Assembly (NCBI GenBank): GCA_051882495.1
Contig: JBJERX010000108.1
Span: 16,291-80,290, forward strand
Direction: 5' to 3'
DNA from: Huintestinicola sp.
Lineage (GTDB): Bacteria > Bacillota > Clostridia > Oscillospirales > Ruminococcaceae
DNA: 64,000 nucleotides
Of this stretch, positions 34,059 through 61,282 are shown piece by piece. The notes under the pieces are model-generated. The model made no database searches. It was not told where the DNA came from and saw only the letters and a list, made by a program, of their open reading frames with translations. Within the stretch, counting starts at the first letter, position 1. Every line of letters begins with the position of its first letter. A program made the position numbers and the translations under genes.

Positions 34059-34064
34059 TACTGT

Positions 34065-41144: not shown

Positions 41145-41149
41145 AAGAA

Positions 41150-41174
41150 AAAACGGTATTACGCATACCGTTTT
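41150..41174. repeat. 25-bp target-site duplication, left copy (itself a terminator hairpin)
   Basis: aaaacggtattacgcataccgtttt, identical to 41509-41533. Confidence 0.9.
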
Positions 41175-41508: not shown

Positions 41509-41533
41509 AAAACGGTATTACGCATACCGTTTT
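41509..41533. repeat. 25-bp target-site duplication, right copy
   Basis: Exact copy of 41150-41174. Confidence 0.9.
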
Positions 41534-41553
41534 TTGATATTTCTGAAACTATA

Positions 41554-42825: not shown

Positions 42826-42857
42826 TTTATCAGTCCTCATTTTATTAGTATGGTCAT

Positions 42858-42886
42858 ATTATACCATAGGTTTGTGTTTAAGTCAA
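42858..42886 (-). promoter_or_regulatory. Sigma-A promoter of mtaD
   Basis: Minus strand TTGACT-17 bp-TATAAT. Confidence 0.65.
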
Positions 42887-42893
42887 TGCAAAA

Positions 42894-42923
42894 TAAAAGC
42901 CGATGCAGCAATGTGCATCGGCT
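42894..42923 (-). terminator. Terminator of the minus-strand pilin
   Basis: agccgatgca/tgcatcggct stem with a T tract on the minus strand. Confidence 0.7.
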
Positions 42924-42942
42924 CTTGATGTTGATTGATAGG

Positions 42943-43458
42943 TTATCGTGATCTGCCCCATACCAGAGGAGAAGACTTATCCTTTGAAGCGGAATTCTCC
43001 ACAGGATAGTTTCCGATTATGGTGTGGTCCTGTGTAGCTGACCACTGGGCGAAGGTTACTCCGTTTTTGGGGTCCATATCAATATAAACTGTACCGGAAC
43101 GAACACCGGCACCGTTGCCCATATATACTATCAGGTTAGTTGTCAGGTCATTAACTGTTCCGTCAAAGGCGATGTCCTCATACACGTTGCCCTGATATCC
43201 CAGTGAACCTGCAATGTTTCCCAGGGGGATAGTTACAGCTAAACGCTGCGAGGGATTATTTCCTGTGTTGTCACACTGTGTGAACCAATTCATAGATGTA
43301 GAATATGCAAGCTTTGCGTTTGTATTGGCTGTGGAGTATTTGGAATCCTTGACATATCCTATCATTGTGGGAACAAGGATAGCTGCCAGAACACCGACTA
43401 TGGCAATTACAACGATCAGTTCAATAAGAGTAAAACCTTTGAAGCGGGTATTTTTCAT
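42943..43458 (-). CDS. Type IV pilin, paralog of the 39496 pilin
   Basis: MKNTRFKG|FTLIE; first 44 mature residues are 40/44 identical to the 39496 pilin; shared C-terminal IIGxYPVENSAxKD motif. Confidence 0.9.
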   Translation of the reverse strand: MKNTRFKGFTLIELIVVIAIVGVLAAILVPTMIGYVKDSKYSTANTNAKLAYSTSMNWFTQCDNTGNNPSQRLAVTIPLGNIAGSLGYQGNVYEDIAFDGTVNDLTTNLIVYMGNGAGVRSGTVYIDMDPKNGVTFAQWSATQDHTIIGNYPVENSASKDKSSPLVWGRSR

Positions 43459-46330: not shown

Positions 46331-47203
46331 TTGAAAGGCATTATTCTTGCAGGCGGTAAAGGGACACGGCTTTACCCCAATACTATAGTTGTTTCAAAGC
46401 AGCTTCTTCCGATCTATGATAAGCCGCTTATCTATTATCCGTTATCGGTTCTTCTTCTGGCTGATATCAAGGAAATACTTCTTATCTCCACTCCCGAGGA
46501 TACTCCGAATTACAGGAAGCTCCTTGGAGATGGTTCACGGATTGGTATATCTATAGAATACAGGATACAGGAAAAACCACGTGGTCTTGCCGATGCGTTT
46601 ATTATCGGTGCGGATTTTATAGGCAATGACAGTGTATGCCTTGTTCTGGGGGATAATGTTTTCTACGGACAGTGCTTCTCTTCAATGCTCATGGACGCAC
46701 AACAGCAGATATGTAACGGAGGAGCAGCCATTTTTGGATATCCCGTTGCAAATCCCAGAGAGTTTGGTGTTGTGGAATTTGACAAAAACAACAAGGTTAT
46801 TTCCATTGAGGAAAAGCCTGCTGTTCCAAAGTCCAATTATGCTGTCCCGGGATTGTATTTCTATGATAATCACGTTGTTGAGATCGCCAAAAGCATCAAG
46901 CCATCTGCCAGAGGCGAGATAGAGATCACTTCCGTCAATAACTATTATCTTGAACACAATATGATGAACGTTACGCTCATGGGGCGAGGTATGGCATGGC
47001 TGGACACAGGCTCGCCAAAGGGCATGCTCAAGGCTGCGGAATTTGTCCGGACCGTTCAGGATATGCAGGGCTTTTATATTGCCTGCATAGAGGAGATCGC
47101 ATGGCGAAGAAGATTTATTACAACAGAGCAGCTTCACGCTATTGGCGAGGAGCTTAAAATGACCGAGTACGGAAAATATTTATTATCGCTTTCGGAGGAG
47201 TAA
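46331..47203 (+). CDS. rmlA: Glucose-1-phosphate thymidylyltransferase
   Basis: GIILAGGKGTRLYP, SKQLLPIYDKP, QEKPRGLA, SARGEIEITS, WLDTG. Confidence 0.95.
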   Translation: MKGIILAGGKGTRLYPNTIVVSKQLLPIYDKPLIYYPLSVLLLADIKEILLISTPEDTPNYRKLLGDGSRIGISIEYRIQEKPRGLADAFIIGADFIGNDSVCLVLGDNVFYGQCFSSMLMDAQQQICNGGAAIFGYPVANPREFGVVEFDKNNKVISIEEKPAVPKSNYAVPGLYFYDNHVVEIAKSIKPSARGEIEITSVNNYYLEHNMMNVTLMGRGMAWLDTGSPKGMLKAAEFVRTVQDMQGFYIACIEEIAWRRRFITTEQLHAIGEELKMTEYGKYLLSLSEE

Positions 47204-47205
47204 TT

Positions 47206-48225
47206 ATGACTATTATAGTAACAGGCGGAGCAGGCTTTATCGGAGGAAATTTCGTTCACTATATGCTGAAGAAATACCCCGATCACAGGGTGATCTGCGT
47301 TGACTGCCTGACCTATGCGGGAAATCCTGAGACTCTTGCTCCTGTTATGAATAACCCGAGCTTCCGCTTCTGCAAGGTGGATATCACCGACAGAGAGGCT
47401 GTGAACAAGGTGTTTGAAGAGGAAAAGCCTGATATCGTTGTCAATTTTGCTGCGGAAAGCCACGTTGACCGTTCCATTGAGGATCCCGGAGTTTTCCTGA
47501 CTACCAACATCATCGGTACTCAGGTAATGATGGATGCCTGCCGCAAATACGGTATAAAGAGATATCATCAGGTTTCCACCGACGAGGTATACGGCGATCT
47601 TCCTCTTGACCGCCCCGACCTTTTCTTCACCGAGGAAACTCCCATACATACCTCAAGCCCTTACAGTGCATCAAAGGCAAGTGCCGATCTGCTTGTCCTT
47701 GCGTATCACAGGACATACGAACTGCCTGTGACAATTTCACGCTGCTCCAATAACTATGGTCCATATCATTTTCCCGAGAAGCTTATCCCCCTTATGATAG
47801 CAAATGCACTGCATGACAAGCCGCTGCCTGTTTACGGCAAGGGTGAGAATGTGCGTGACTGGCTGTATGTTGAGGACCACTGTAAAGCTATCGACCTAAT
47901 TATCCACAAGGGCAGAGAAGGGGAGGTCTACAATATCGGCGGTCATAACGAGATGAAAAATATTGATATTGTTAAGATGATCGTCAAGGCTCTCGGGAAA
48001 AGCGAGGATCTTATTACCTTTGTGGCTGACAGAAAAGGTCACGATAGGCGTTACGCCATTGACCCCACAAAGATACATACCGAGCTGGGATGGCTCCCCG
48101 AAACAAAATTTGAGGATGGTATTCAGAAAACTATCAGCTGGTATCTTGACAACAGAGAATGGTGGGAGCATATCATTAATGGCGAATATAAGGAATACTA
48201 TAAAAAAATGTATAGCTGCAGGTAA
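47206..48225 (+). CDS. rmlB: dTDP-glucose 4,6-dehydratase
   Basis: VTGGAGFIG, AAESHVDRSI, STDEVYG, YSASKA, NNYGPYHFPEKLIP, GHDRRY. Confidence 0.95.
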   Translation: MTIIVTGGAGFIGGNFVHYMLKKYPDHRVICVDCLTYAGNPETLAPVMNNPSFRFCKVDITDREAVNKVFEEEKPDIVVNFAAESHVDRSIEDPGVFLTTNIIGTQVMMDACRKYGIKRYHQVSTDEVYGDLPLDRPDLFFTEETPIHTSSPYSASKASADLLVLAYHRTYELPVTISRCSNNYGPYHFPEKLIPLMIANALHDKPLPVYGKGENVRDWLYVEDHCKAIDLIIHKGREGEVYNIGGHNEMKNIDIVKMIVKALGKSEDLITFVADRKGHDRRYAIDPTKIHTELGWLPETKFEDGIQKTISWYLDNREWWEHIINGEYKEYYKKMYSCR

Positions 48226-48334
48226 GGCCGCACCCTGTCTGCAGCACGTTATTAAGTATCAATTAAGATAAAACGCAAAGCAGAAGGAGACGACACTGAT
48301 TTCCTCCTCTCTGCAGCTTTTTTTTGAATATGGG

Positions 48335-48363
48335 TTGACTTTTTTTGCGGATTAGTATATAAT
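48335..48363 (+). promoter_or_regulatory. Sigma-A promoter of the CDP-sugar operon
   Basis: TTGACT-17 bp-TATAAT, ~200 nt upstream of rfbF. Confidence 0.7.
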
Positions 48364-48564
48364 AAAATCGAGTATTATTGTTTAACGCTAAGTTCAAATC
48401 GTTTAATAGACAGATCCGGCAGAAGAGAAGCTGATTGTTTGCCTTATCCGTTTTATCCTTGGCGGCTTATGTTGAGTTCCGGAATTATGGTAATTCCGTT
48501 CCGATAATTATGATGATGGTGGTTTGCAAAGACCCAAAAAAATAACAGTAGGGAGATAAAAATT

Positions 48565-49344
48565 ATGAAAGCAGTTCTTTTAGCAGGAGGACTGGGAACA
48601 AGAATTTCCGAGGAATCCCAGTACAAGCCCAAGCCTATGATCGAAATAGGCGGAATGCCTATTCTGTGGCATATAATGAAGGAATATTCCTATTACGGAT
48701 TTAACGATTTTATCATCTGTGCAGGCTATAAGCAGCACGTTATAAAGGAATGGTTCGCAGATTATTTCCTGCATACCTCCGATATAACCTTCGATTTTAC
48801 CGAAGGCAACAAAATGGTTATACATAACATGAAGGCAGAGCCCTGGAGGGTCACAGTGGTGGATACGGGGCTTAATACAATGACAGGCGGCAGAATAAAG
48901 CGTATCCGGCCCTATATCGGCAATGAGACATTTATGATGACATATGGCGACGGCGTATGCGATGTGAATATTACCGAGCTGCTTGAGTTCCATAAGAGCC
49001 ATGGAAAGACTGCAACACTGACCGCTGTAATGCTTGAGCAGCAGAAGGGCGTACTGGATATCGGCGGCGACAATGCTGTCCACTCCTTCAGAGAAAAGGC
49101 TGCGGGAGACGGTGCACCTATTAATGCGGGATATATGGTGCTTGAGCCTGAGATCTTCGATTATATTGACGGTGATGATACCGTATTTGAGAAAAAGCCT
49201 CTGGAAACACTGGCGGCAAAGGGAGAGCTTATGAGCTATATGCACAAGGGCTTCTGGCAGTGCATGGATACAAAGCGTGAAATGGATATGCTTGAAAAGC
49301 TCCTTGCCACAGGACAGGCACCCTGGAAAAAATGGGAGGACTAA
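48565..49344 (+). CDS. rfbF: Glucose-1-phosphate cytidylyltransferase (DdhA)
   Basis: LAGGLGTRISEE..KPKPMIEIG, DTGLNTMTGGRIKR, TYGDG, GFWQCMDT. Confidence 0.95.
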   Translation: MKAVLLAGGLGTRISEESQYKPKPMIEIGGMPILWHIMKEYSYYGFNDFIICAGYKQHVIKEWFADYFLHTSDITFDFTEGNKMVIHNMKAEPWRVTVVDTGLNTMTGGRIKRIRPYIGNETFMMTYGDGVCDVNITELLEFHKSHGKTATLTAVMLEQQKGVLDIGGDNAVHSFREKAAGDGAPINAGYMVLEPEIFDYIDGDDTVFEKKPLETLAAKGELMSYMHKGFWQCMDTKREMDMLEKLLATGQAPWKKWED

Positions 49345-49349
49345 GCTCA

Positions 49350-50420
49350 ATGGACCTTAAAAGCTTTTACAAAGGGAAAAAAGTCCTCATAACGGGGCAT
49401 ACAGGCTTCAAAGGCTCATGGCTTTGCAGGATACTTGCAGGCTTCGGAGCGGAGGTGACAGGCTATTCTCTTACGCCCCCAACATCCCCCTCGCTGTTTG
49501 AGCTTGCGGAGGTTGAAAAGGACATCACTCACATTGTGGGGGATATCAGAGACCTCGACAGCCTTAAAAAAGTATTTGAGGAAAAGCGTCCCGAGATAGT
49601 TCTTCATCTTGCGGCTCAGCCTATTGTAAGGGAGAGCTATAGGAATCCCCTTGATACCTATGAGATAAATGTTATGGGCACAGCCAATATCCTGGAGTGC
49701 GTCCGTCTTACCGACTGCGTCAAGTCCTTTCTGAATGTTACTACCGATAAGGTTTATCTCAATCGTGAGTGGGAATGGGGCTACCGTGAGACAGACGAGC
49801 TGGATGGCTATGACCCTTATTCCAACTCCAAATCCTGTTCCGAGCTGGTGACACATTCATATAAAAACAGCTTTTTCTCCGACGGCAGAACAGCCATTTC
49901 CACCGCCCGTGCGGGAAATGTTATCGGCGGCGGAGATTTTGCTTCTGACAGAATAATCCCGGACTGCATCAGAGCAGCAGAAAAGCATGAGGATATAATC
50001 GTCAGAAATCCTTTTTCAACACGTCCCTATCAGCACGTTCTGGAGCCGCTTTTTGCATATCTGCTCATTGCTGCAAAGCAGTATGAGGATATCTCCTATG
50101 AGGGATATTACAATGTTGGTCCCGATGATAACTGCTGCTTTGAGACAGGCAGGATAGTTGATCTCTTTACTGAAAAATGGGGAGATGGTATCAAGTGGGT
50201 CAATAAGTATGACGGCGGACCTCACGAAGCTAATTTCCTGAAGCTTGACTGTGCTAAGATAAAGACTAAATTCGGCTGGAGACCTACCTGGGAGCTTCCC
50301 GAGACTATGGATAAAATAGTTGAGTGGACAAAGCTTTATATCAGCGGGGCATCTGCCATTGAGCTGAAAGAATGTATGGACAGGCAGATAAATGAATTTA
50401 TGGAACAGATGAATAAATAA
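49350..50420 (+). CDS. rfbG: CDP-glucose 4,6-dehydratase (DdhB)
   Basis: ITGHTGFKGSWL, HLAAQP, TTDKVY, DPYSNSK, RAGNVIGGGD, RPYQHVLEPL, HEANFLKLD. Confidence 0.95.
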   Translation: MDLKSFYKGKKVLITGHTGFKGSWLCRILAGFGAEVTGYSLTPPTSPSLFELAEVEKDITHIVGDIRDLDSLKKVFEEKRPEIVLHLAAQPIVRESYRNPLDTYEINVMGTANILECVRLTDCVKSFLNVTTDKVYLNREWEWGYRETDELDGYDPYSNSKSCSELVTHSYKNSFFSDGRTAISTARAGNVIGGGDFASDRIIPDCIRAAEKHEDIIVRNPFSTRPYQHVLEPLFAYLLIAAKQYEDISYEGYYNVGPDDNCCFETGRIVDLFTEKWGDGIKWVNKYDGGPHEANFLKLDCAKIKTKFGWRPTWELPETMDKIVEWTKLYISGASAIELKECMDRQINEFMEQMNK

Positions 50421-50441
50421 TTTTGAAAGGAATCGTATAAA

Positions 50442-51788
50442 ATGAGCAAGTGGAATACCGAAGCAGAGGCAAGAGATCAGATAAAGGCTCTTGTTGCTGA
50501 TTATTACCATAACTTTAAGGAAAATAAGGCTCCCTTTGAAAAGGGCAACAGAATAAGCTATGCATCAAGAGTATTTGATGAAAAGGAAATGTGTGCACTT
50601 ACCGATGCTATGCTTGATTTTTGGCTTACCACAGGCAGATTTGCCGATGAATTTGAGAAGGAGTTTGCAAAGTGGATAGGCGTAAAGCATGCACATCTTG
50701 TAAACAGCGGTTCTTCCGCAAATCTTATTGCATTTATGGCACTTACCGCACCTGAGCTTGGCGACAGACAGATAAAGAGAGGGGACGAGGTCATTACTGT
50801 AGCCTGCGGCTTCCCCACAACTGTCACACCTATTCTTCAGTACGGGGCAGTGCCTGTTTTCGTTGATGTGACCGTTCCTCAGTATAACATTGATGTGAAC
50901 GCACTTGAAGCGGCTCTCAGCGATAAGACCAAGGCTGTTATGATAGCACATACGCTGGGAAATCCCTTTGACCTTAAGGCTGTAAAGGCATTCTGTGATA
51001 AGCATGGTCTCTGGCTTGTAGAGGATAACTGCGACGCTTTGGGCACACAGTACACCATTGACGGTGAGACACGCTTCACAGGCACATGGGGAGATATAGG
51101 CACATCAAGCTTCTATCCTCCTCACCACATGACTATGGGCGAGGGCGGCTGTGTTTATACCAATGACCCCAAGCTTTCAAGACTTATCCTTTCTTATCGT
51201 GACTGGGGAAGAGACTGCATCTGTCCTTCGGGCAGGGACAATTTCTGTAACCATCGTTTTGACGGACAGTTCGGTGAGCTTCCTCAGGGCTACGACCACA
51301 AGTATGTTTACAGCCATTTCGGATATAATCTTAAGGTTACGGATATGCAGGCAGCTGTAGGCTGCGAGCAGCTGAAAAAGTTCCCTTCATTTATTGAGAG
51401 ACGCCGTCACAACCATGACAGGCTCCTTAAGGCTCTTGAATGCGTAAGCGACAAGCTTATCCTTCCCGTTCCCGCCGAGAACAGCCGTCCTTCCTGGTTT
51501 GGCTTCCTCATTTCCGTTAAGCCCGAAAGCGGCAGGACAAGAAACGAGGTCACAAAATATATTGAATCCCACAATATTCAGACAAGACTGCTTTTCAGCG
51601 GCAACCTTATCAAGCACCCCTGCTTCGACCAGATCAGAGGCACAGACGCTTACAGGATTGCAGGCAGCCTTGAAAATACCGATTTTATTATGAATAACAC
51701 CTTCTGGGTGGGGGTTTATCCCGGTATGACAGATGAGATGATAGATTATATGGCTGAAGTTATTATTGAGGCTGTGAAGTATGAATGA
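50442..51788 (+). CDS. rfbH: CDP-4-keto-6-deoxyglucose 3-dehydrase E1 (DdhC)
   Basis: SFYPPHHMTMGEGG has His in place of the aminotransferase Lys; GRDCICPSGRDNFC..YDH fits the E1 Fe-S ligand pattern. Confidence 0.92.
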   Translation: MSKWNTEAEARDQIKALVADYYHNFKENKAPFEKGNRISYASRVFDEKEMCALTDAMLDFWLTTGRFADEFEKEFAKWIGVKHAHLVNSGSSANLIAFMALTAPELGDRQIKRGDEVITVACGFPTTVTPILQYGAVPVFVDVTVPQYNIDVNALEAALSDKTKAVMIAHTLGNPFDLKAVKAFCDKHGLWLVEDNCDALGTQYTIDGETRFTGTWGDIGTSSFYPPHHMTMGEGGCVYTNDPKLSRLILSYRDWGRDCICPSGRDNFCNHRFDGQFGELPQGYDHKYVYSHFGYNLKVTDMQAAVGCEQLKKFPSFIERRRHNHDRLLKALECVSDKLILPVPAENSRPSWFGFLISVKPESGRTRNEVTKYIESHNIQTRLLFSGNLIKHPCFDQIRGTDAYRIAGSLENTDFIMNNTFWVGVYPGMTDEMIDYMAEVIIEAVKYE

Positions 51789-52767
51789 TACAAAGAAAAC
51801 CGTAAGCGTGGTAATTCCTACCTATAATGAAATAGAAAATGTTCAGGCAGTTGCAGATGCGGTAGTGAAAGAGTTAACGGATAATCTGCCCGAGTATAAC
51901 TATGAGCTGCTGTTTATCGATAACAAGTCCACTGATGGTACAAGAGATGTTATCAGAAAGCTCTGTTCCGAAAATCCGTGTATCAAGGCTATTTTTAATA
52001 TAAAGAATTTTGGACCCGACAATTCTCCGTATTATGGTCTGCTTCAGGCAACGGGTGACTGTGTGATCCCATTTAGCGCTGATTTTCAGGATCCTATTGA
52101 AATGATACACAAAATGGTTCGAGAATGGGAAAAAGGAAATAAGGTAATAACAGCAATAAAGCAAACAAGCCGTGAAAACAAGCTGCTGCGTTTCTTAAGA
52201 ACAATTTATTATAAGTTGATCCGCAAAATATCAAGCACCGAGATAATAGAACATTTTACAGGTTTCGGACTTTATGATCGTTCATTTGTGGATATACTTC
52301 GTTCGATAAATGATCCAGTCCCGTTCTTCAGAGGGGTTGTGGCAGAGTTCAGCGACAGTCGGTTGGAAATGCCCTATGAGCAGCAGAAAAGAAGAGCGGG
52401 GAAGAGTCATATAAGATTTTTCACTCTATACGATATGGTAATGAGGAGCATAACCTCGTATACAAGGATAGGTTTGCGCATAGCTACGCTTATTGGATTC
52501 GGAACTGCAGCAATTTCGCTGCTGGTTGCTGTTATTTACTTTATATATAAGCTTTTAAATTGGGATAGCTTCAATACGGGTATGGCTCCTGTTGTTATTG
52601 GCATATTCTTCTTCAGTTCAATACAGCTTGCATTTCTCGGACTGATGGGAGAATATGTTATGAGTATAAATAACAGGATAATTAACAGACCATTGGTAAT
52701 AGAAGCTGAAAGAATAAATTTTGTCAGCTCCGAAATAACAACCTTATCGGATAAAGACAGCTTATGA
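51781..52767 (+). CDS. GT2 polyprenyl-phosphate glycosyltransferase (GtrB-like)
   Basis: VVIPTYNE, FIDNKSTDGT, SADFQDP, RRAGKS, two C-terminal TMs. Confidence 0.85.
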   Translation: MNDTKKTVSVVIPTYNEIENVQAVADAVVKELTDNLPEYNYELLFIDNKSTDGTRDVIRKLCSENPCIKAIFNIKNFGPDNSPYYGLLQATGDCVIPFSADFQDPIEMIHKMVREWEKGNKVITAIKQTSRENKLLRFLRTIYYKLIRKISSTEIIEHFTGFGLYDRSFVDILRSINDPVPFFRGVVAEFSDSRLEMPYEQQKRRAGKSHIRFFTLYDMVMRSITSYTRIGLRIATLIGFGTAAISLLVAVIYFIYKLLNWDSFNTGMAPVVIGIFFFSSIQLAFLGLMGEYVMSINNRIINRPLVIEAERINFVSSEITTLSDKDSL

Positions 52768-52800
52768 TAATATATGATATGTCACGGAGGCATAAAATTG

Positions 52801-53859
52801 ATGAATGCACAAATAAAGCTGCTTGACTGTACTCTCAGAGATGGCGGATTTGCTCTTGAAGATGCGGAAAAAAATAATATTTCTGCAGGCACATTTTCAG
52901 AGGATGATAGGAATCATATAGCACAGAAGATGACAGAAAGCGGTGCGGAAATAATCGAGCTTGGAGCTATTGAGGTCACTCCTTCCGACAGAAAAGGCTT
53001 TGCCATTTACCCGGATATCGAAAGCATCTCTGCTGTGATGCCTCCGAAAAAGAACAGCAGCCAGCTTTATGCAGGCTTTTTCAGGGGGCCCGACAGACCT
53101 CTTGAGGAAATCCCGCCCTATTCCGAGAATATGCTGGAAGCTGTAAGAGTTTGTCTCAGATATTCCGAGCTGAGGAAATCCCTTGATTACTGTAAGGGAC
53201 TATGCGAAAAAGGATATAAAGTATTTATTCAACCAATGGTCACTGCACGCTATACGGATGAGGAGCTTTCTCTTCTTACCCAAGAGGCAAACTCTATGGG
53301 AGCATATGCTCTGTACTTTGTGGACAGCTACGGCTTTATGACCGAGGAGGATGTGGCGTATTATTTCGGACGATTTGACCGTGAACTTGCCCCCTCAATC
53401 AAAATAGGCTTTCACGCCCACAATAATATGGAAATGGCACTGCCCAATGTATTGTCCTTTATAAAAAATTGCGGAAGCAGAGAAATAATTATTGATTCCT
53501 GTGCCGACGGTATGGGACAAGGCACGGGCAATCTCCAGACCGAGATAATTATGAATTATCTCAACAGGATGTATGGCAAGAACTACTGCCTAGATAAGGT
53601 CTTCGATGTATGTGAGACTATAGGGAAATTTAATTCAAACAGGCTTTGGGGTTACCTGCCTGCAAGATTTATTCCTGCTGTGAATGGCACCGCCTACAAA
53701 TATGCCTTGGCATTAAAAAATAAGTATGGAATGAGCCTCGCAGAAATACACAGCATTCTCAGCAATATCTCTGAAGAGCTGAGATACAGATATACTCCCG
53801 AAAATGCAGAAAAGCTTGTTATTGACAGTGGGATCTATGTAAATAAGGATGGTAAATAA
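52801..53859 (+). CDS. DRE-TIM (HMGL-like) aldolase, 4-hydroxy-2-oxovalerate aldolase-like
   Basis: LLDCTLRDGG, YFVDSYG, GFHAHNN metal site, GMGQGTGN. Confidence 0.8.
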   Translation: MNAQIKLLDCTLRDGGFALEDAEKNNISAGTFSEDDRNHIAQKMTESGAEIIELGAIEVTPSDRKGFAIYPDIESISAVMPPKKNSSQLYAGFFRGPDRPLEEIPPYSENMLEAVRVCLRYSELRKSLDYCKGLCEKGYKVFIQPMVTARYTDEELSLLTQEANSMGAYALYFVDSYGFMTEEDVAYYFGRFDRELAPSIKIGFHAHNNMEMALPNVLSFIKNCGSREIIIDSCADGMGQGTGNLQTEIIMNYLNRMYGKNYCLDKVFDVCETIGKFNSNRLWGYLPARFIPAVNGTAYKYALALKNKYGMSLAEIHSILSNISEELRYRYTPENAEKLVIDSGIYVNKDGK

Positions 53860-53861
53860 GT

Positions 53862-55529
53862 ATGACTGTTGCCGAATATATCGTTAGCGAGATGATAAAA
53901 TGCGGTGTAACAGATGCCTTTGGTATACCGGGTGGAGTTATATTAAAGCTGCTTGCTGCAATGAAAAAAGCAGAACCGGTTCTAACTCCTCATCTGACAT
54001 ATCACGAGCAGACAGCAGGCTTTGCGGCTCTCGGTTATGCTCAGTCAAGCGGAAGGTTAGGTGTTGCTTATTCAACAAGAGGACCTGGTATTACCAATAT
54101 GATTACCTGTATTGCTGAAGCATATCAGGAATCGCTGCCCGTGCTGTTTATCACAGCTCATGGCAGGCGGATGGAGAATAATGTAAGATTTAACGATAAT
54201 CAGGAGCTTGAAGTAGTCAGCTGCATTTCAAAATTCACCAAATTTGCAGCTAATGCCGATACTCCCCACGATGCAGCTAAAATGCTCAAAAAAGCAATTA
54301 ACATTGCGGTGAGTGGAAGAAAGGGACCTGTTTTTCTTGATTTTGCGGCATCCGTTTTCGATAATGAGATTTCTGACGTACCCGAAGAGCATACGGTTTT
54401 GGAGGATAATAGCTCTGTTTCAAAAGCTGCAGATAATGCGACGAAGTTGCTTTCCTCTGCAAAGCGTCCGATATTGCTTATTGGTGACGGACTTAGATAT
54501 TATTCAAAGGACAAACTTAAGAAAATTGCAGAAACACTTAAGATCCCCGTGCTTTCAAGCAGAGGTTCTCAGGATCTTTTGGGAGGCTCGGAGTATTATT
54601 TCGGGTATGTGGGCAGCCACGGTGTAAGATACAGCAACTTTATCCTTTCAAAGGCAGACCTTATCATTGCTGTGGGAAACAGAATGGCATTCCCTCTAAA
54701 CTCGGCAAGCTTTTCTCCTGTTATCAATAATGCAATCATATTCAGAGTGGATATTGATGAAAATGAGCTGAGCCGTCATATTCCTAATGAATATGCTTTT
54801 GCTTGTGACGGCGGAATGTTTCTTGAACTGCTTATGGGGAAGTATCATTTTGAACAAGGCACCGAAGGCTGGCTTGACGTTTGTCGATGCCTTAAAAGAG
54901 AGCTTATTGATGAGGACTGCAATGAAACAGTAAGAAGACTGTCATCATTCATGTCTGCACAGTCTGCCGGAAAGCATTATGTCTGTGATGTTGGAAATAA
55001 TGAATTCCTGTTTTCAAGGGCATATGAGTACATTGGCTCAGAAGATAGTATATGCTGCTCAAAATCCTTCGGTACCTTAGGTTCTTCTATAGGACGTGCT
55101 ATTGGTGTATATTATGCATCCGGCGGAGAAGTTATCTGTGTATGCGGAGATCAGGGCTTTCAGTATAATTCACAGGATCTGCATTATATTTCTCAATGGA
55201 AGCTTCCAATCAGGATAGTTTTACTGAACAATTCCCGCTCGGGAATGATAGCAGATCACGAAAAGAATGTGCTGGGTGATATGAGAATTCATATTGATGA
55301 AGGATCGGGCTACAAAACTCCTGATTTTGCCAAGGTTGCTCAATGCTACGGTATAGAGTATACATCAGATCAGGATACTGCCTGTATGGATAATAATGAA
55401 CCTTTGCTTTATGAGATAAAGTCTGACGAGTGCGGTATCCTTTCACCTTCTTTACCAAAAGGAAATCCCTGTCAGGATATGTTCCCTCTTCTTGACAGAA
55501 ATAAATATGAGTATCTTGATAAACTTTGA
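53862..55529 (+). CDS. Acetolactate-synthase-like ThDP enzyme (YerE-like carboligase)
   Basis: FGIPGG, HEQTAGFAA, RGPGITN, GRKGPVFLD, ThDP motif CGDQG..LLNN; glycan-locus context. Confidence 0.8.
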   Translation: MTVAEYIVSEMIKCGVTDAFGIPGGVILKLLAAMKKAEPVLTPHLTYHEQTAGFAALGYAQSSGRLGVAYSTRGPGITNMITCIAEAYQESLPVLFITAHGRRMENNVRFNDNQELEVVSCISKFTKFAANADTPHDAAKMLKKAINIAVSGRKGPVFLDFAASVFDNEISDVPEEHTVLEDNSSVSKAADNATKLLSSAKRPILLIGDGLRYYSKDKLKKIAETLKIPVLSSRGSQDLLGGSEYYFGYVGSHGVRYSNFILSKADLIIAVGNRMAFPLNSASFSPVINNAIIFRVDIDENELSRHIPNEYAFACDGGMFLELLMGKYHFEQGTEGWLDVCRCLKRELIDEDCNETVRRLSSFMSAQSAGKHYVCDVGNNEFLFSRAYEYIGSEDSICCSKSFGTLGSSIGRAIGVYYASGGEVICVCGDQGFQYNSQDLHYISQWKLPIRIVLLNNSRSGMIADHEKNVLGDMRIHIDEGSGYKTPDFAKVAQCYGIEYTSDQDTACMDNNEPLLYEIKSDECGILSPSLPKGNPCQDMFPLLDRNKYEYLDKL

Positions 55530-55543
55530 TCGGAGGAACGTTT

Positions 55544-57301
55544 ATGTATATCGAAAATATCAGCAGTCCAGCAGATTTGAAAAAGCTATCAATGGATGAA
55601 TGTGAAGCTCTTGCTTCCGAAATTCGTTCAATGCTTATAAAAAAAGCTTCTATTAATGGCGGACATCTTGCTTCTAATCTGGGTATGGTCGAAGCAGCTA
55701 TAGCTCTGCACTATGTATTTGACTCACCTTCCGATAAGATCATATTTGACGTTTCTCACCAGTGCTATACCCATAAGATACTTACCGGCAGAAAAGCTGC
55801 ATTTACTGATGTGGATAAATACTCCTCGGTAAACGGCTATACAAATCCTGATGAAAGTGAGCACGATCTGTTTAAGGTAGGTCATACTGCAACATCCATA
55901 AGCCTTGCCTGTGGTCTTGCAAAGGCAAGAAACATCAGAGGCGGTAAAGAAAGCATTATTGCAGTTATCGGAGATGGTTCGCTAAGCGGAGGAGAAGCTT
56001 TTGAAGGGCTTGATTTCGGCGGTTCTGATATTGAGGGTAATTTTATTGTGCTTTTCAATGACAATCAGATGTCTATTGCGGAAAATCACGGCGGCATCTA
56101 CAATAATCTTGCTCTGCTCAGAAATACTGAGGGAAAAGCTGAAAATAATCTTTTTAAGGCCTTTGGATATGACTATATTTTTGTTAAGGATGGCAACAGT
56201 ATAGTGCAGATTGTGAATGCACTCAGAGAGGCAAAAGAGCTTGACCACCCTGTCGTTGTTCATATATGCACGGTAAAAGGAAAAGGCTATGACTTTGCCG
56301 AAAGCCACAAGGAAAGCACTCATTGGGTAAAACCCTTTAATATTGACAGCGGACTTGAAAAAAATCCTTTTAACGGAGAACGCTACGACAGGCTCATGCG
56401 AGATCACCTAATCGAAAAAATGGAAGAGGATCCCAATGTAGTTACAATGATAGCTGCTGTCCCCGATTCGCTCAATTTTACTGCCGAACACAGAAAAAAG
56501 GCAGGGAAGCAGTTTGTTGATGTAGGTATTGCAGAGGAGCATGCTGTTTCTATGGCGGCTGGTCTTGCAAAGAATGGCTGCAAGCCCGTTTTTGCCACAA
56601 TGTCTACATTCTTCCAGAGGACATATGACCAGATATCTCAGGAACTATGTATCAACAATACGCCTGTCACTCTTCTTGTAATAAATGCTTCTGTTTATTC
56701 AGTAAATGATATTACTCATATTGGAATATTCGATATTCCAATGATGTCAAATATACCGAATCTTGTGTATCTTGCTCCCACAAATAAACAGGAATATCTT
56801 GCCATGACGGACTGGAGTATAGATCAGCAGCAATATCCGGTAGCAATAAGAGCACCCAGAAACGGTGTGTATAATGCAAAGGACGATGTTGACACCGATT
56901 ACAGCTGTCTTAACAAATATAAGGTCGTTACAAAAGGTGAAAAGGTTGCTGTCCTTGCATTAGGAAGCTTTTTCCAGTTGGGCGAGGAGATTTTGAAAAA
57001 AATTTCAGACAGCCTTGGTTTTGTACCTACACTGATAAATCCGAGATATATCACGGGTATTGATAACGAGCTTCTTGAAAGACTGAAAAAGGATCATGAT
57101 GTCGTTATTACTCTGGAGGACGGCGTTCTTGACGGCGGATGGGGTCAGAAGATAGCATCATTCTATGGTAATTCTGAAATGAAGGTACTGAATTATGGAC
57201 TGAAAAAAGAATTCCTCGACAGATATGACTTGAACAAGGTCATGACCGAGAATCGCCTCATACCTGAGCTTATCCTTGAAGATATCAGGGGAATTCTTTG
57301 A
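55544..57301 (+). CDS. DXS-like ThDP carboligase 1 (short type, 585 aa)
   Basis: GGHLASNLG, FDVSHQ, GDGSLSGG..NDN, IAEEHA, TFFQRTYDQ; GGAGG RBS before ATG 55544. Confidence 0.85.
   Translation: MYIENISSPADLKKLSMDECEALASEIRSMLIKKASINGGHLASNLGMVEAAIALHYVFDSPSDKIIFDVSHQCYTHKILTGRKAAFTDVDKYSSVNGYTNPDESEHDLFKVGHTATSISLACGLAKARNIRGGKESIIAVIGDGSLSGGEAFEGLDFGGSDIEGNFIVLFNDNQMSIAENHGGIYNNLALLRNTEGKAENNLFKAFGYDYIFVKDGNSIVQIVNALREAKELDHPVVVHICTVKGKGYDFAESHKESTHWVKPFNIDSGLEKNPFNGERYDRLMRDHLIEKMEEDPNVVTMIAAVPDSLNFTAEHRKKAGKQFVDVGIAEEHAVSMAAGLAKNGCKPVFATMSTFFQRTYDQISQELCINNTPVTLLVINASVYSVNDITHIGIFDIPMMSNIPNLVYLAPTNKQEYLAMTDWSIDQQQYPVAIRAPRNGVYNAKDDVDTDYSCLNKYKVVTKGEKVAVLALGSFFQLGEEILKKISDSLGFVPTLINPRYITGIDNELLERLKKDHDVVITLEDGVLDGGWGQKIASFYGNSEMKVLNYGLKKEFLDRYDLNKVMTENRLIPELILEDIRGIL
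57068..57295 (+). repeat. 228-bp direct repeat, copy 1 (3' end of DXS-like 1)
   Basis: 227 of 228 bases identical to 60137-60364 (offset 3,069 bp), compared by eye. Confidence 0.95.
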
Positions 57302-57337
57302 TTATAATCCTATTGATAAAGGAGTAACTGCATAGAA

Positions 57338-58333
57338 ATGAAAGATATAACTATATTAGTTACAGGTGCCACGGGTTTATTGGGCTATAATCTTGTTAAT
57401 CAATTGATTGACAGGGACGTAAAAGTAATTGCATTGGGAAGAAGCGAAGAAAAGCTTCGTAACTGCTTTAACGAACATATCGGAAAAGATTATTTTTCAT
57501 ATATAGCGTCTGATATTTCCGGGCTAAAGTTACCTATAGATGAACCAATCGATTGTATTTTTCACGCAGCAGGATCGATTGAATTGAAAACAATAGTCGA
57601 GCAACCAATGAATATTGTAAATCCTAACAGTTTAGGCACTATTTCCTGCTTGGAATTCTTAAAAGAACAAGAAATAAGGAGCGGTAAAAGAGGAAGACTC
57701 ATTTACTTCTCCAGTGAAGCAGTATATGGTAAAAGCAGCAATGATAGACGGGTCACAGAGGAGGATACGGAAATATCCGATTCGCTTACAGTCCAAAGAT
57801 CACCCTACTCACATTCCAAAAGGATCGGAGAAGTAATTGTAAACGGCTATCACAAGCAATATAACACCGATTCATTGAGTGTGAGACTTTCCTGGGTATA
57901 TGGAAATGCAAAAATCAGACCCAAGCAAGCACTGTTTGATTTTATTCAAACCGCTCTTGAGGGAAATGATATAATAATCAGAAACGCCAACACTCCCAGA
58001 CGAGATAATATCTGCATGAAGGATGCTATGGAAGCATTGATCTGTATAGCTCAGAAGGGAACGGCAGGGGAGGCTTATAACATTTCTTCAGGCGGAGACT
58101 GCGGCAATTTCGCGTCGGCTGCCGAGATCGCAGAGATCGTTGCTGATATTGTAAACAGCAAACAGTATTCACCCAAGCCTGTACATGTGCTTTACGAAAA
58201 TGAATTATCCAAAAGAGAAGGCGGGATTATTATGGACAATTCCAAGCTTAAAATGCTGGGATGGGACATAACAACTGGACTTCGTGATGGAATTGAAAAG
58301 TTAATAGATGAGGTAAGAAACAATGTATATTGA
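57338..58333 (+). CDS. Extended SDR (NAD(P)-dependent NDP-sugar reductase/epimerase)
   Basis: VTGATGLLG, SSEAVYG, YSHSK catalytic YxxxK, RLSWVYG. Confidence 0.85.
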   Translation: MKDITILVTGATGLLGYNLVNQLIDRDVKVIALGRSEEKLRNCFNEHIGKDYFSYIASDISGLKLPIDEPIDCIFHAAGSIELKTIVEQPMNIVNPNSLGTISCLEFLKEQEIRSGKRGRLIYFSSEAVYGKSSNDRRVTEEDTEISDSLTVQRSPYSHSKRIGEVIVNGYHKQYNTDSLSVRLSWVYGNAKIRPKQALFDFIQTALEGNDIIIRNANTPRRDNICMKDAMEALICIAQKGTAGEAYNISSGGDCGNFASAAEIAEIVADIVNSKQYSPKPVHVLYENELSKREGGIIMDNSKLKMLGWDITTGLRDGIEKLIDEVRNNVY

Positions 58334-60110
58334 AAAGATCAACAGTCCCGCGGACTTAAAAAAATTATCAATTGATGAGTGTAAGGTATTAGCAGATGAG
58401 ATGAGGCAGACACTGCTAAATAAACTAAGCGTTACAGGCGGACATCTGGCACCGAATCTTGGTGTCGTTGAGGCAGTGATAGCATATCATTATGTTTTCG
58501 ATTCTCCCTATGATAAAATCGTTTTCGATGTATCCCATCAATGCTATCCTCATAAGATGCTCACAGGAAGAATGGAAGCTTATACAAAGCCTGAGAAATA
58601 TTCATCTGTAACAGGATTTACTGAAATTACTGAAAGCGAACACGACTTTTTTACTGTAGGTCATACTTCAACCTCAATCAGTCTCGCCAGCGGTATGGCT
58701 AAGGCACGAGATCTGAAGGGTGACAAAGAGAATATAATTGCATTTATCGGAGACGGCTCATTAGGCGGTGGTGAAGCATTTGAGGGACTTGATTATGTGG
58801 CCTCTGAAATAAATAGCAATTTTATTATCATATTAAATGATAATGGAATTTCCATAGCTGAAAATGTAGGTGGGCTGTATAAGAACTTAAAAGAACTCCG
58901 CGATACAAACGGTACTTCTCAAAACAATATATTTAAGGCTCTGGGACTTGATTATAGGTTTGTAGAAAATGGAAATGATATTCCTTCTTTAGTAGAAACA
59001 TTGCAGGAAGTTAAGGATATTGATCATCCGGTAGTAGTGCATATTTGTACAGTTAAGGGTTATGGATATACATATTCGGAAAGTAACCCTGAGATGACTC
59101 ATTGTCTTAATAAACCTTTCGATATTGAAAAGGGTCCTGATTTTACTCCATTTAAGTTTGTTGAAGGAAAGAATGAAAGATATGATTATATAATCAGAGA
59201 ACACCTTATTGACCGAATGAAAAAAGATCCTCTTATTACCACAATTATGGCATCAACAATGTACTGCCTTTCTTTTACGAAAGATAAGCGGGAAGAAGCC
59301 GGAAATCAGTTTGTTGATGTAGGGGCGGTAGAGGAACATGGTATTGCGATGACTGCCGGCGTAGCACGAAATGGAGGCAAACCTGTATTCGTAACTGCAT
59401 CTACTTTCTATATGCGAACATATGACCAGATATCTCAGGAATTATGTATAAATAAATGCCCTGCTACATTAATTGTAGTCAATGCTTCCGTGTATGCAGT
59501 TGATGATGTTACACATACTGAAATATTTGATATCCCTATGATGTCAAATATACCGAATCTGGTATATCTTGCTCCCACAAACAAGCAGGAATATTTAGCA
59601 ATGTTGGATTGGAGTATAGATCAGACAGAGTATCCTGTTGCAATTCGTCAGCCTAGAAATGGTGTTTTCTATGCTAAGGGTGAAGTGGATAAGGATTATA
59701 GCGATCTAAATAAGTATAAGATTGAAATATGCGGCAGCAAGGTTGCAATTATTGCCCTGGGAGAATTCTATCAGTTGGGAGAATCAGTTGTCGATTTATT
59801 AGAGAAAAGAACAGGAATAAAAGCTACACTAATAAATCCCAGATATATAACCGGAATTGACGAAGCACTGCTGAGAAGTCTTCCTGAAACGCATAGTTTG
59901 ATAGTAACACTTGAAAGCGGCTCACTGAACGGAGGATTTGGAGAAAAAATTGCATCTTTCTATGGACCTGATAACAGAGTAAAAGTTCTTAACAGAGGTT
60001 TGAAAAAGGAATTCCTTGATACGGTTCATATGAGTACTGCGAAATTACTGGAAGATTTGCGCCTGACAGACGAGTTACTATGTGATGATATTGAAAGCTG
60101 TCTGAATTGA
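58323..60110 (+). CDS. DXS-like ThDP carboligase 2 (595 aa)
   Basis: GGHLAPNLG, DVSHQ, GDGSLGGG..NDN, AVEEHG, TFYMRTYDQ; clear paralog of DXS-like 1. Confidence 0.85.
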   Translation: MYIEKINSPADLKKLSIDECKVLADEMRQTLLNKLSVTGGHLAPNLGVVEAVIAYHYVFDSPYDKIVFDVSHQCYPHKMLTGRMEAYTKPEKYSSVTGFTEITESEHDFFTVGHTSTSISLASGMAKARDLKGDKENIIAFIGDGSLGGGEAFEGLDYVASEINSNFIIILNDNGISIAENVGGLYKNLKELRDTNGTSQNNIFKALGLDYRFVENGNDIPSLVETLQEVKDIDHPVVVHICTVKGYGYTYSESNPEMTHCLNKPFDIEKGPDFTPFKFVEGKNERYDYIIREHLIDRMKKDPLITTIMASTMYCLSFTKDKREEAGNQFVDVGAVEEHGIAMTAGVARNGGKPVFVTASTFYMRTYDQISQELCINKCPATLIVVNASVYAVDDVTHTEIFDIPMMSNIPNLVYLAPTNKQEYLAMLDWSIDQTEYPVAIRQPRNGVFYAKGEVDKDYSDLNKYKIEICGSKVAIIALGEFYQLGESVVDLLEKRTGIKATLINPRYITGIDEALLRSLPETHSLIVTLESGSLNGGFGEKIASFYGPDNRVKVLNRGLKKEFLDTVHMSTAKLLEDLRLTDELLCDDIESCLN

Positions 60111-60388
60111 GTCAAATCTTTTCAGAGTATGTTAATGAGCTTCTTGAAAGACTGAAAAAGGATCATGATATCGTTATTACTCTGGAGGACGGCGTTCTTG
60201 ACGGCGGATGGGGTCAGAAGATAGCATCATTCTATGGTAATTCTGAAATGAAGGTACTGAATTATGGACTGAAAAAAGAATTCCTCGACAGATATGACTT
60301 GAACAAGGTCATGACCGAGAATCGCCTCATACCTGAGCTTATCCTTGAAGATATCAGGGGAATTTTTAACAATTGGCACACTGTATGA
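60107..60388 (+). pseudogene. Duplicated C-terminal fragment of DXS-like 1
   Basis: Encodes ELLERLKKDHD..EDIRGI from the 228-bp repeat; no catalytic domains. Confidence 0.85.
60137..60364 (+). repeat. 228-bp direct repeat, copy 2
   Basis: One mismatch versus 57068-57295 (g57101 / a60170). Confidence 0.95.
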
Positions 60389-60397
60389 TGCGGCAAT

Positions 60398-60571
60398 GCT
60401 CCCGTACTTATAGGAGTATTCCTTCTCGGCGGAATTCAGCTTTTCTTTATCGGACTGCTGGGCGAATACATAATGTCAATAAACACCAGAGTCATGAACA
60501 GACCTTTGGTTATTGAAGAAAAAAGACTGAATTTTGATGATCCTCATGATGAAAAAGAGGACAGAGAATAA
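60398..60571 (+). pseudogene. 3' remnant of a second GtrB-like GT2 gene, absent from the ORF track
   Basis: APVLIGVFLLGGIQLFFIGLLGEYIMSINTRVMNRPLVIEEKRLNF..* parallels APVVIGIFFFSSIQLAFLGLMGEYVMSINNRIINRPLVIEAERINF of 51781-52767; in-frame stop at 60386-60388, no start. Confidence 0.85.
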
Positions 60572-60609
60572 TTTCGGTCATAATATTTCCGTATGAGGGA
60601 GCTGAACCA

Positions 60610-61086
60610 ATGCAATCAATAAAGCAGTTTTTAAAATTCGGCATAGTCGGATTATCCAATACTCTTATTTCGCAGATCATATACATGATAGCAGTCTCCC
60701 TTGGTGCTCACTATCTTGCAGCCAGCGTGATCGCTTTCATTATCAGTGTGCTGAATGCATTTTTCTGGCAGAATAAATTTGTTTTCAAGGAGGAAGAGGA
60801 CAAGGAGAAAAGAGTATGGTGGAAGGTTCTTCTGAAAACCTATGCAGCTTACGCCTTTACGGGTCTGCTGCTGAATAATCTTCTCCTGATAATGTGGATA
60901 GACCTTATCAGGATCGAAAGCTTCACTCCTGCACTCACTGATCTTGTGAACAGCTTCGGTATCAATATAAGCAATCATGATCTGGCTGTTGATATAGCTC
61001 CTCTTCTTAATATTGTTGTGAATGTGCCCATTAACTTTGTGATTAATAAATTCTGGGCTTACAGGCAAAAAAAGGTTGCATCTTAA
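60610..61086 (+). CDS. GtrA-family lipid-linked sugar translocase
   Basis: QFLKFGIVGLSNTLI, NAFFWQNKFVF, INFVINKFWAY; four TMs. Confidence 0.9.
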   Translation: MQSIKQFLKFGIVGLSNTLISQIIYMIAVSLGAHYLAASVIAFIISVLNAFFWQNKFVFKEEEDKEKRVWWKVLLKTYAAYAFTGLLLNNLLLIMWIDLIRIESFTPALTDLVNSFGINISNHDLAVDIAPLLNIVVNVPINFVINKFWAYRQKKVAS

Positions 61087-61282
61087 AGACATGCTGTCTC
61101 AGATGTTTAGTCAGATGATGTATTATGGTGGTAATCAGAGCTGATTTATAGCATTCTTTGTCGGAAATCATTACTTATATTTGCGAGCAAATACAGCTTT
61201 GTTTTCCGGAAAACGTTAAAAAGTATGTGTTGATACGACATAGTGCCGTTTAGACCAAATTGTTTATTTATGAGGTGAATTT

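Follow-up and report, generated by a model that had tools for sequence, protein, structure and literature searches.

In a 64,000-nucleotide stretch of a Huintestinicola sp. draft genome (the window), a ten-gene operon on the + strand (48565-61086) most likely makes a C-4-branched 3,6-dideoxyhexose, activated with cytidine diphosphate (CDP) and bearing a side chain longer than C2, which would then enter a polyprenyl-phosphate route through the GtrB-like and GtrA-family proteins of the same operon. The operon encodes the CDP-sugar enzymes RfbF, RfbG and RfbH, a pyruvate aldolase, a thiamine diphosphate (ThDP)-dependent enzyme related to acetohydroxyacid synthase (AHAS) and YerE, two carboligases resembling 1-deoxy-D-xylulose-5-phosphate synthase (DXS-like 1 and DXS-like 2), and a short-chain dehydrogenase/reductase (SDR). 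A product of this kind was proposed in a preliminary description of this DNA, and it stands as the likely one. We are confident of the core that this locus shares with its relatives, namely that a C-4-branched CDP-deoxyhexose is built from pyruvate units by the aldolase, the ThDP enzymes and the SDR. The order of the steps is a more delicate matter, and our tentative choice, which we put just short of evenly balanced, is that the aldolase would act first and on the keto sugar itself.

Protein families were assigned by Pfam and NCBIfam. All ten open reading frames (ORFs) are intact, and their coordinates and family assignments agree with those given in the preliminary description. Strong family matches show that RfbF forms CDP-glucose, RfbG converts it to CDP-4-keto-6-deoxyglucose, and RfbH, the E1 enzyme, removes the 3-hydroxyl. 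RfbH matches the Yersinia E1 structures 3bcx and 3bb8 with E = 4e-152, and when aligned with 3bcx it keeps both the SFYPPHHMTMGEGG motif, where the active-site His takes the place of Lys, and the C-x-C-x7-C motif of the [2Fe-2S] cluster, DCICPSGRDNFC. Judged from this alignment, RfbH is a true E1.

The linkage of the aldolase and the AHAS-like enzyme to this CDP-sugar core is conserved well beyond the window. Orthologues of the aldolase are plentiful in metagenomes (45-86% identity), and we retrieved 79 genome loci, from Lachnospiraceae, Oscillospiraceae, Phascolarctobacterium, Acetobacterium, Bacteroidales/Prevotella, Elusimicrobia, Spirochaetes and Melainabacteria. For the co-occurrence counts we used 63 non-redundant loci in which the flanks of the AHAS-like gene were complete. 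An aldolase gene adjoins the AHAS-like gene in all 63, and rfbF is present in 60, rfbG in 55, rfbH in 17, GtrB in 33 and GtrA in 18. The second ThDP enzyme is DXS-like in 31 loci and a split transketolase (TK) in 8, and 24 have neither, so that the usual cassette consists of one AHAS-like enzyme with or without one enzyme of the transketolase superfamily. In 60 of the 63 loci, rfbF/rfbG accompany the aldolase-ThDP pair, more than chance would give, and this linkage spans at least seven named phylum-level groups. The preliminary description had proposed a search for joint occurrence of rfbH, aldolase, AHAS-like and DXS-like genes; by these counts the aldolase is a constant companion of the AHAS-like gene, and rfbH and the DXS-like gene are present in only some of the loci.

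The reverse dependence is also informative. An AHAS-like orthologue lacking the aldolase would have spoken for a YerE-like user of pyruvate, but no convincing one was seen in 80 metagenome loci, where the single candidate lies on a 3.3-kb contig. The aldolase, on the other hand, occurs with rfbF and rfbG without any ThDP enzyme in at least 11 loci (~50% identity; absence of the ThDP enzyme judged by tblastn at 1e-2). All of the ThDP-free loci that were checked encode an Acyl_transf_3 protein and a 2-oxoacid reductase, the latter belonging to 2-Hacid_dh or to Ldh_2, which are unrelated families. One such locus (L063) has the order rfbF-rfbG-aldolase-2HADH-AT3-GtrB-GtrA-methyltransferase-GT87-like, and besides the aldolase it contains no other enzyme able to resolve the 4-ketone. 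Gene content of this kind suggests that in the ThDP-free loci the aldolase may add pyruvate directly to the 4-keto sugar. In a tree of the aldolases, ThDP-free loci, loci with the AHAS-like enzyme only and loci with an additional DXS-like or TK enzyme are interleaved, with 26 label changes, and therefore one shared aldolase reaction is likely. The occurrence of the aldolase without the ThDP enzyme, but not the reverse, agrees with a first step catalyzed by the aldolase, with the CDP-4-ketosugar as its substrate.

The aldolase itself departs from the enzymes known to make 4-hydroxy-2-oxoacids. It falls far under the 4-hydroxy-2-oxovalerate aldolase cut-offs, with 101 bits for NF006049 (cut-off 229) and 86 bits for TIGR03217 (cut-off 286). 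It keeps R13, D14 and the HxH metal ligands of DmpG, and DmpG His21 is replaced by Phe (RDGSHA reads RDGGFA); the same position is Leu in all 12 aldolase relatives aligned. An acylating aldehyde dehydrogenase (DmpF/BphJ/ErwJ) is absent from the operon and is not among the recurrent neighbor families of the related loci. By these sequence features, the aldolase is not an orthologue of DmpG or ErwI.

The two DXS-like proteins belong to the "short DXS" family NF008968, which is also found in Bacteroides thetaiotaomicron and Lactococcus lactis. Domains PF13292, PF02779 and PF02780 all match, yet the proteins fall below the DXS equivalog TIGR00204 (460 and 429 bits; cut-off 466) while passing NF003933 (636 and 611 bits; cut-off 395). 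Both retain the ThDP-binding and catalytic residues of E. coli DXS (H49, H80, D152, N181, H299, E370, R398 and H431). Of R420, R478 and Y392 (E. coli numbering), which we take to be the residues of DXS that bind glyceraldehyde 3-phosphate (GAP), R478 is kept, R420 is replaced by N, and Y392 is replaced by M in DXS-like 1 (M or A across the pair). The loop at 199-245 is cut to 14 residues, with a loss of ~43, and this deletion is common to the whole family. The host has a separate canonical DXS with a full N-domain on another contig (C88). All 23 of the cassette DXS-like proteins examined share N420, N or D at 427 and R or K at 478, whereas 11 non-cassette relatives are hypervariable at positions 392, 420, 427 and 478. 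By this pattern of residues, the cassette proteins form a coherent subfamily with a defined acceptor other than GAP. Among non-cassette members whose neighbors were scanned, three of four adjoin a MerR regulator. The NF008968 homologues of the other Clostridia genomes L107, L109 and L112 (56-61% identity, ~8 kb into each locus) lie next to MerR-family regulators and outside glycan loci, and the "short DXS" family may represent an aldehyde-scavenging carboligase.

Exchange of genes between related loci points to the stage at which these enzymes act. Two Bacteroidales loci, L046 and L048, are 95% identical in DNA across rfbH-aldolase-ThDP, and the unit [SDR + split TK + GtrB] of the former is exchanged in the latter for [classical SDR + DXS-like + GtrB]. 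From this exchange, we conclude that the TK-superfamily step comes after the aldolase and the AHAS-like enzyme and is a tailoring step that changes the product. On the same grounds, the TK-superfamily enzyme travels with its reductase and alters the final sugar enough to need another GtrB.

The window contains the same kind of two-gene unit as the module exchanged between L046 and L048. The 3' end of DXS-like 1 is duplicated downstream of DXS-like 2, and because the SDR and DXS-like 2 are bracketed by these 238-nt direct repeats, which are 98% identical, they represent a recent insertion of 3,069 bp. The insertion looks like a reductase-plus-carboligase module, and recombination between the repeats could excise both genes. 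Neither the duplicated DXS 3' end nor a GtrB C-terminal remnant that follows it was recorded in the preliminary description, which read three ThDP enzymes plus an aldolase as the likely source of an extended side chain, in a branched sugar of C10-C12 or larger. To derive a very long chain from the number of ThDP enzymes is to read too much into the locus, given the recent arrival of DXS-like 2 and the rarity of the arrangement, two DXS-like genes being found, besides the window, in only 1 of the 63 loci (L038, a Gemmiger metagenome-assembled genome, which has an 81% identical orthologue of DXS-like 2).

The proposed pathway, in our favored order, would run as follows. The aldolase would attach pyruvate, through its methyl carbon, at the C-4 ketone of CDP-4-keto-3,6-dideoxyglucose, giving a sugar-bound 2-oxoacid branch (-CH2-CO-COOH), and the AHAS-like enzyme would decarboxylate this branch to an aldehyde. 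A DXS-like enzyme would then transfer an acetyl unit from pyruvate to the branch aldehyde by DXS-type chemistry, and the SDR would reduce the new ketone. The predicted product is a ~C10 CDP-3,6-dideoxy-4-C-(dihydroxybutyl)-type hexose, to which DXS-like 2 may add further variation. The GtrB-like enzyme would load the sugar on undecaprenyl phosphate, GtrA would flip it, and a GT-C glycosyltransferase (a candidate lies 9 kb downstream) would transfer it to a surface glycan. We favor this order because an aldehyde on the branch is the native acceptor type of DXS and transketolase enzymes, and because the aldolase lacks DmpG His21, scores too low for the family models and is not accompanied by DmpF or ErwJ as a source of aldehyde. 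The number of reductases also stays constant at one: a single reductase is present in 23 of the 24 loci without a second ThDP enzyme and in 30 of the 39 loci with one, a pattern more in keeping with an aldehyde intermediate that the carboligase uses up than with two independent ketones.

It is possible, though we hold this a shade more loosely than the step order itself, that gut anaerobes have an undescribed route to C-branched "higher" sugars in which a DRE-TIM aldolase adds pyruvate to a nucleoside diphosphate (NDP)-4-ketosugar, the sugar-bound 2-oxoacid is reduced or decarboxylated to an aldehyde, and exchangeable modules of a reductase with a DXS-like or split-TK enzyme extend it by C2. 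With the same reserve, we suggest that the chemistry may be ordered differently from that of any described pathway. If so, the window would represent a rare double-module variant, and its 238-bp repeats could allow modules to be lost or gained, with strain-level variation in the glycan.

Several points weigh against the aldolase-first pathway as we have drawn it. The preliminary description held that RfbF, RfbG and RfbH give CDP-4-keto-3,6-dideoxyglucose by themselves, but E1 needs a reductase, E3 (DdhD/AscD, a flavin-[2Fe-2S] enzyme), and none is encoded in the operon or was found in the draft genome, which is a 148-contig assembly judged 96% complete. Only two ORFs with PF00175 are present in the genome (286 and 263 residues), both on other contigs, and no E3 was seen in related loci that contain rfbH. 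Because no E3 is encoded, 3-deoxygenation by RfbH must use another electron donor, presumably a general ferredoxin or flavodoxin system, and the pathway depends to that extent on some other reductase. In addition, DXS-like 2 has no obvious substrate in the aldolase-first scheme, and the ThDP-free loci are interpreted from their gene context. For enzymes of the aldolase's fold, we know of no demonstrated case in which an NDP-ketosugar serves as the electrophile. The nearest solved relatives of the ThDP enzyme are 5ahk, which we take to be PpYerE (173 bits), and JanthE 8rph (166 bits), ahead of E. coli AHAS I (155 bits) by a small margin; JanthE accepts ketones and is YerE-like. The gene context, with rfbF nearby in 60 of the 63 loci, is compatible with an enzyme that would take the C-4 ketone of a CDP-ketosugar as its acceptor. 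The sole precedent tested by experiment runs the opposite way, with a free 4-hydroxy-2-oxoacid made first and then ligated by ErwE (PMC9306805).

This opposite order is the strongest competitor. According to the unifying scheme that Steitz et al. published in 2022, a 4-hydroxy-2-oxoacid comes from an aldolase and is joined to CDP-4-keto-3,6-dideoxyglucose by a YerE-like ThDP enzyme (ErwE, MMAR_2332 or MyGE), after which a reductase completes erwiniose, caryophyllose or gastriose (PMC9306805). Applied to the window, the aldolase would condense pyruvate with a small aldehyde, the AHAS/YerE-like enzyme would decarboxylate the resulting acid and ligate the acyl anion to the C-4 ketone, and the SDR, acting like YerF or ErwF, would reduce the 1'-ketone to an erwiniose-type sugar, with the DXS-like enzymes adding more or acting on another ketone. 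The operon has the same set of genes as the erwiniose cluster (for ddh enzymes, an aldolase, a ThDP enzyme and a reductase), and ErwE was shown to accept 4-hydroxy-2-oxoacids together with a cyclic ketone, whereas it did not accept pyruvate (PMC9306805). The structural relatives just named speak for the same order, and the constant company of the aldolase is what would be expected of an ErwE-like enzyme that needs a long donor. We nonetheless consider this order doubtful here. It requires an aldehyde for which neither ErwJ nor DmpF is present, and the aldolase of the window, without the catalytic His of DmpG, is no orthologue of DmpG or ErwI. It leaves at least 11 rfbF-rfbG-aldolase loci with a 2-oxoacid reductase and no ThDP enzyme unexplained, offers no aldehyde acceptor for the DXS- and TK-like enzymes, and predicts a second ketone, and usually a second reductase, wherever there is a DXS-like enzyme, which is not seen. 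The preliminary description had assumed a YerE-type order, and comparative genomics instead favors placing the aldolase first. Both orders predict a sugar of ~C10-C12, and they differ at C-1' of the branch, which would be a methylene if the aldolase acts first and a carbinol in the published order. Neither order explains the role of DXS-like 2.

It could also be argued that the DXS-like enzymes act upstream, decarboxylating a 2-oxoacid (pyruvate, hydroxypyruvate or 2-oxobutyrate) to supply the aldolase with an aldehyde and so replacing ErwJ in the published scheme. This would provide the missing supplier, and it agrees with the intact catalytic and ThDP residues, the changed GAP-binding residues, and the optional presence of the gene in 31 of the 63 loci, as might be expected of an accessory function. 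However, enzymes of the transketolase superfamily normally retain the carbanion for transfer to a bound acceptor rather than set aldehydes free, the L046/L048 swap of the DXS-like/TK module, reductase and GtrB points to a late step that changes the product, and the DXS-like gene moves with a reductase as a two-gene unit; we regard this arrangement as improbable. Still less probable, to the point that we give it very little weight, is a plain 3,6-dideoxyhexose of the paratose, abequose, tyvelose or ascarylose type made by RfbF, RfbG, RfbH and the SDR, with the aldolase and ThDP genes belonging to unrelated metabolism or the locus decaying: the SDR could in principle be a 4-ketoreductase and the locus does hold two gene remnants and a recent rearrangement, but the aldolase-ThDP pair is almost always linked to rfbF/rfbG in at least seven phylum-level groups, the ten intact ORFs include overlapping coding regions within one operon, the genome has its separate canonical DXS, and the SDR has no close characterized relative (closest solved structure E = 2.6e-19), with no CDP-paratose or CDP-abequose synthase and no CDP-tyvelose epimerase among the matches listed.

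The remaining components fit a polyprenyl-phosphate route for the sugar. The GtrA of the operon is the only one in the genome. The 499-nt gap upstream of it holds two gene remnants, one of which comprises the C-terminal 60 codons of a second GtrB gene and is evidence of an earlier DXS-GtrB-GtrA arrangement, as in Bacteroidales loci. The candidate GT-C is a protein of 684 residues (contig C108:86337-88391) with a weak PMT_2 match (27 bits), ~10 membrane segments followed by a soluble domain, and a DUF4214 domain at its end; two YfhO homologues are encoded elsewhere in the genome. Coordinates of all features are given in Table 1.

Table 1. Features of the operon and its immediate upstream region, in window coordinates
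Feature	Position	Strand	Basis and remarks
rmlA + rmlB, dTDP-glucose pathway	46331..48225	+	directly upstream; terminator-like hairpin at end
Sigma-70-like promoter	48335..48363	+	TTGACT-17 nt-TATAAT, 11/12 match; ahead of operon
rfbF/ddhA, glucose-1-phosphate cytidylyltransferase	48565..49344	+	TIGR02623, 380 bits (cut-off 300)
rfbG/ddhB, CDP-glucose 4,6-dehydratase	49332..50420	+	TIGR02622, 442 bits (cut-off 278)
rfbH/ddhC (E1), PMP- and [2Fe-2S]-dependent CDP-4-keto-6-deoxyglucose 3-dehydrase	50442..51788	+	NF011936, 717 bits (cut-off 423)
GtrB-like GT2, polyprenyl-phosphate sugar transferase	51781..52767	+	PF00535; best NCBIfam matches PgfS and ArnC, both below cut-off
Class II pyruvate aldolase, HMGL (DRE-TIM) fold, non-DmpG subfamily	52774..53859	+	PF00682; database gene call starts at 52801
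AHAS/YerE-like ThDP enzyme	53862..55529	+	PF02776, PF00205, PF02775 (three TPP domains); HEQ (catalytic Glu) and GDQG...NN (ThDP-binding) motifs
DXS-like carboligase 1, "short DXS" PRK12315 type	55526..57301	+	NF008968, 856 bits (cut-off 510); database gene call starts at 55544
Direct repeat copy 1, 3' end of DXS-like 1	57061..57298	+	238 nt, 98% identical to copy 2, 3,069 nt apart
Extended SDR (NDP-sugar type), presumed side-chain ketoreductase	57338..58333	+	PF01370
DXS-like carboligase 2, 62% identical to DXS-like 1	58323..60110	+	NF008968, 809 bits (cut-off 510)
Direct repeat copy 2	60130..60367	+	within orphan remnant ORF 60095-60388, duplicating DXS-like 1 C-terminus
GtrB remnant, C-terminal 60 codons of a second gene	60389..60571	+	31/48 residues (65%) identical to GtrB residues 267-314
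GtrA-family membrane protein, presumed flippase	60610..61086	+	PF04138, 73 bits

From rfbF to DXS-like 2 the genes are spaced by anything from a 13-nt overlap to a 36-nt gap, and the site at 48335 is the best promoter-like match in a scan of 48000-61400; the tight packing and the promoter put forward in the preliminary description are thus both upheld. As read from the sequence, a hairpin with a T-run lies 3' of rmlB, followed by this promoter. The ~200-nt leader behind the promoter has no Rfam match and a folding z-score of +0.45 (no unusual fold), and a regulatory RNA there was rejected. Directly 3' of GtrA (61283-63775) is a gene for an 830-residue protein that matches DUF4214, contains a long coiled coil and ends in an S-adenosylmethionine (SAM) methyltransferase. 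The glycan region goes on beyond the window (contig C108:80300-88391; L092:3068-11392) with two GT1 genes, an AlgX-like SGNH protein, an MBOAT protein (DltB/AlgI-like) and the multi-spanning PMT_2-like protein with its C-terminal DUF4214. Upstream of the glycan region (25510-43458) is a type IV pilus cluster with a PilM-like protein, T2SSF, two T2SSE ATPases, several N-methyl pilins and an ORF of 1,183 residues without a Pfam match.

The host is a relative of the Oscillospiraceae (formerly Ruminococcaceae) without close kin in collections, and the window proteins tested are all singletons at 90% identity; among named organisms, its enolase is matched best by that of Huintestinicola sp. (76%). 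In a class-level sample of 399 Clostridia genomes, an orthologue of the aldolase was present only in the window's own genome; the remaining matches are paralogues of 525-570 residues with ~30% identity, so this sample was unusable for co-occurrence statistics, and the cassette is rare per species. The paralogue (family f10, e.g., L075:2633-4246) has a fused C-terminal domain of ~200 residues and, with 21 of the 399 genomes encoding it, is far commoner than the aldolase of the cassette. Ald2, a protein related to this paralogue, stands where the aldolase would be, before the ThDP gene, in a few of the metagenome loci (L165, L181 and L191). In one Lachnospiraceae locus (L030:11029-16158), the position of the DXS-like or TK enzyme is occupied by another AHAS-like enzyme, a distant one (27% identity), which suggests that any ThDP carboligase can fill the second step. 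Related cassettes are common among gut bacteria, Roseburia for one. Relatives of DXS-like 1 with >70% identity are present in Roseburia, where near-identical versions are indexed in >600 blocks of the assembly collection, in cassettes with the order rfbF-SDR-rfbH-aldolase-ThDP-DXS-like-rfbG. The cassette is also present in the cultured strains Phascolarctobacterium faecium DSM 14760, Acetobacterium tundrae DSM 9173 and Butyrivibrio sp. AC2005.

Long C-branched deoxysugars have so far come from a few Gram-negative bacteria and mycobacteria, and they shape antigenicity and immune evasion. The cassette brings the same chemistry, either as known or in reverse, to abundant gut commensals, and cultured carriers make an unknown surface sugar of the human microbiota directly testable. 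The preliminary description presented the locus as a candidate pathway for a novel sugar, but its logic is not novel: the combination of an aldolase, a YerE-like enzyme and a reductase has already been published (PMC9306805). Although the general recipe has thus been known since 2022, the aldolase and the two DXS-like enzymes are of undescribed kinds, and what is new here is the non-DmpG aldolase, the DXS-like carboligase modules, the absence of E3, and a polyprenyl-phosphate route in a Gram-positive gut anaerobe. The earlier statement that no such sugar had been described from Ruminococcaceae-type gut bacteria agrees with our literature search, which found none, and which likewise found no report of such a sugar or cassette from Clostridia or Roseburia, nothing on an aldolase acting on CDP-ketosugars, and nothing on DXS-like genes in Roseburia glycan loci. 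"Short DXS" (PRK12315) is routinely annotated as DXP synthase and likely has a non-isoprenoid role, and new ThDP carboligases and possibly a ketone-accepting pyruvate aldolase are of interest for biocatalysis.

Among known systems, the erwiniose cluster of Pectobacterium atrosepticum SCRI1043, with the aldolase ErwI, the acetaldehyde dehydrogenase ErwJ, the ThDP enzyme ErwE, the reductase ErwF and ddh genes, is a close parallel (PMC9306805). In both, a single glycan locus joins the CDP-4-keto-3,6-dideoxyglucose core to an NAD(P)H reductase, a pyruvate aldolase and a ThDP enzyme of AHAS-like type, and the product, which for the window is a likely one, has a C-4 branch longer than C2. The window differs in its HMGL aldolase subfamily, in lacking ErwJ and E3, in having one or two DXS-like carboligases, and in its Gram-positive host, where GtrB/GtrA export would replace direct O-antigen assembly; the order of steps may also be reversed. 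The yersiniose A pathway of Yersinia pseudotuberculosis (DdhA-D, YerE and YerF) shares the RfbF/G/H core and a ThDP enzyme and reductase at C-4, but YerE uses pyruvate directly with no aldolase, while the window-type ThDP enzyme was never found without one and has no DdhD/E3 beside it. In the caryophyllose module of Mycobacterium marinum (aldolase MMAR_2331, ThDP enzyme MMAR_2332 and glycosyltransferase MMAR_2333), a ThDP enzyme likewise puts an aldolase-derived long chain on a 3,6-dideoxyhexose, but the aldolase is of the HpcH/citrate-lyase family rather than HMGL, a DXS-like enzyme is absent, and the sugar becomes part of a lipooligosaccharide. The window DXS-like proteins share three domains and the ThDP and catalytic residues with DXS and with the "short DXS" of PDB 9kpq ("DXS", ~60% identical; no paper on it was found in the literature search), and they differ from DXS in the changed R420 and Y392 and in the deleted loop. 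The three-component Gtr systems (GtrA/GtrB/GtrC; ArnC; CsbB-YfhO; PgfS) resemble the window in having a GT2 with a C-terminal membrane anchor and a GtrA in one operon, with a multi-spanning GT-C candidate on the contig, although the GT-C match is weak and the donor in the window would be a CDP-sugar. To our knowledge, a CDP-sugar donor has not been described for GtrB-type enzymes.

The branch itself has a structural parallel in shewanellose of Shewanella putrefaciens A6, which is 2-acetamido-2,6-dideoxy-4-C-(3'-carboxamide-2',2'-dihydroxypropyl)-D-galactose (PMC4052302). Shewanellose, an amino sugar of Gram-negative origin, is known as a structure only, and its branch is neither decarboxylated nor extended. 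We know of no genes that have been assigned to it. Its C-4 branch is nonetheless a pyruvate unit attached through the methyl carbon, as the aldolase-first step would produce, and thus such a branch exists in nature.

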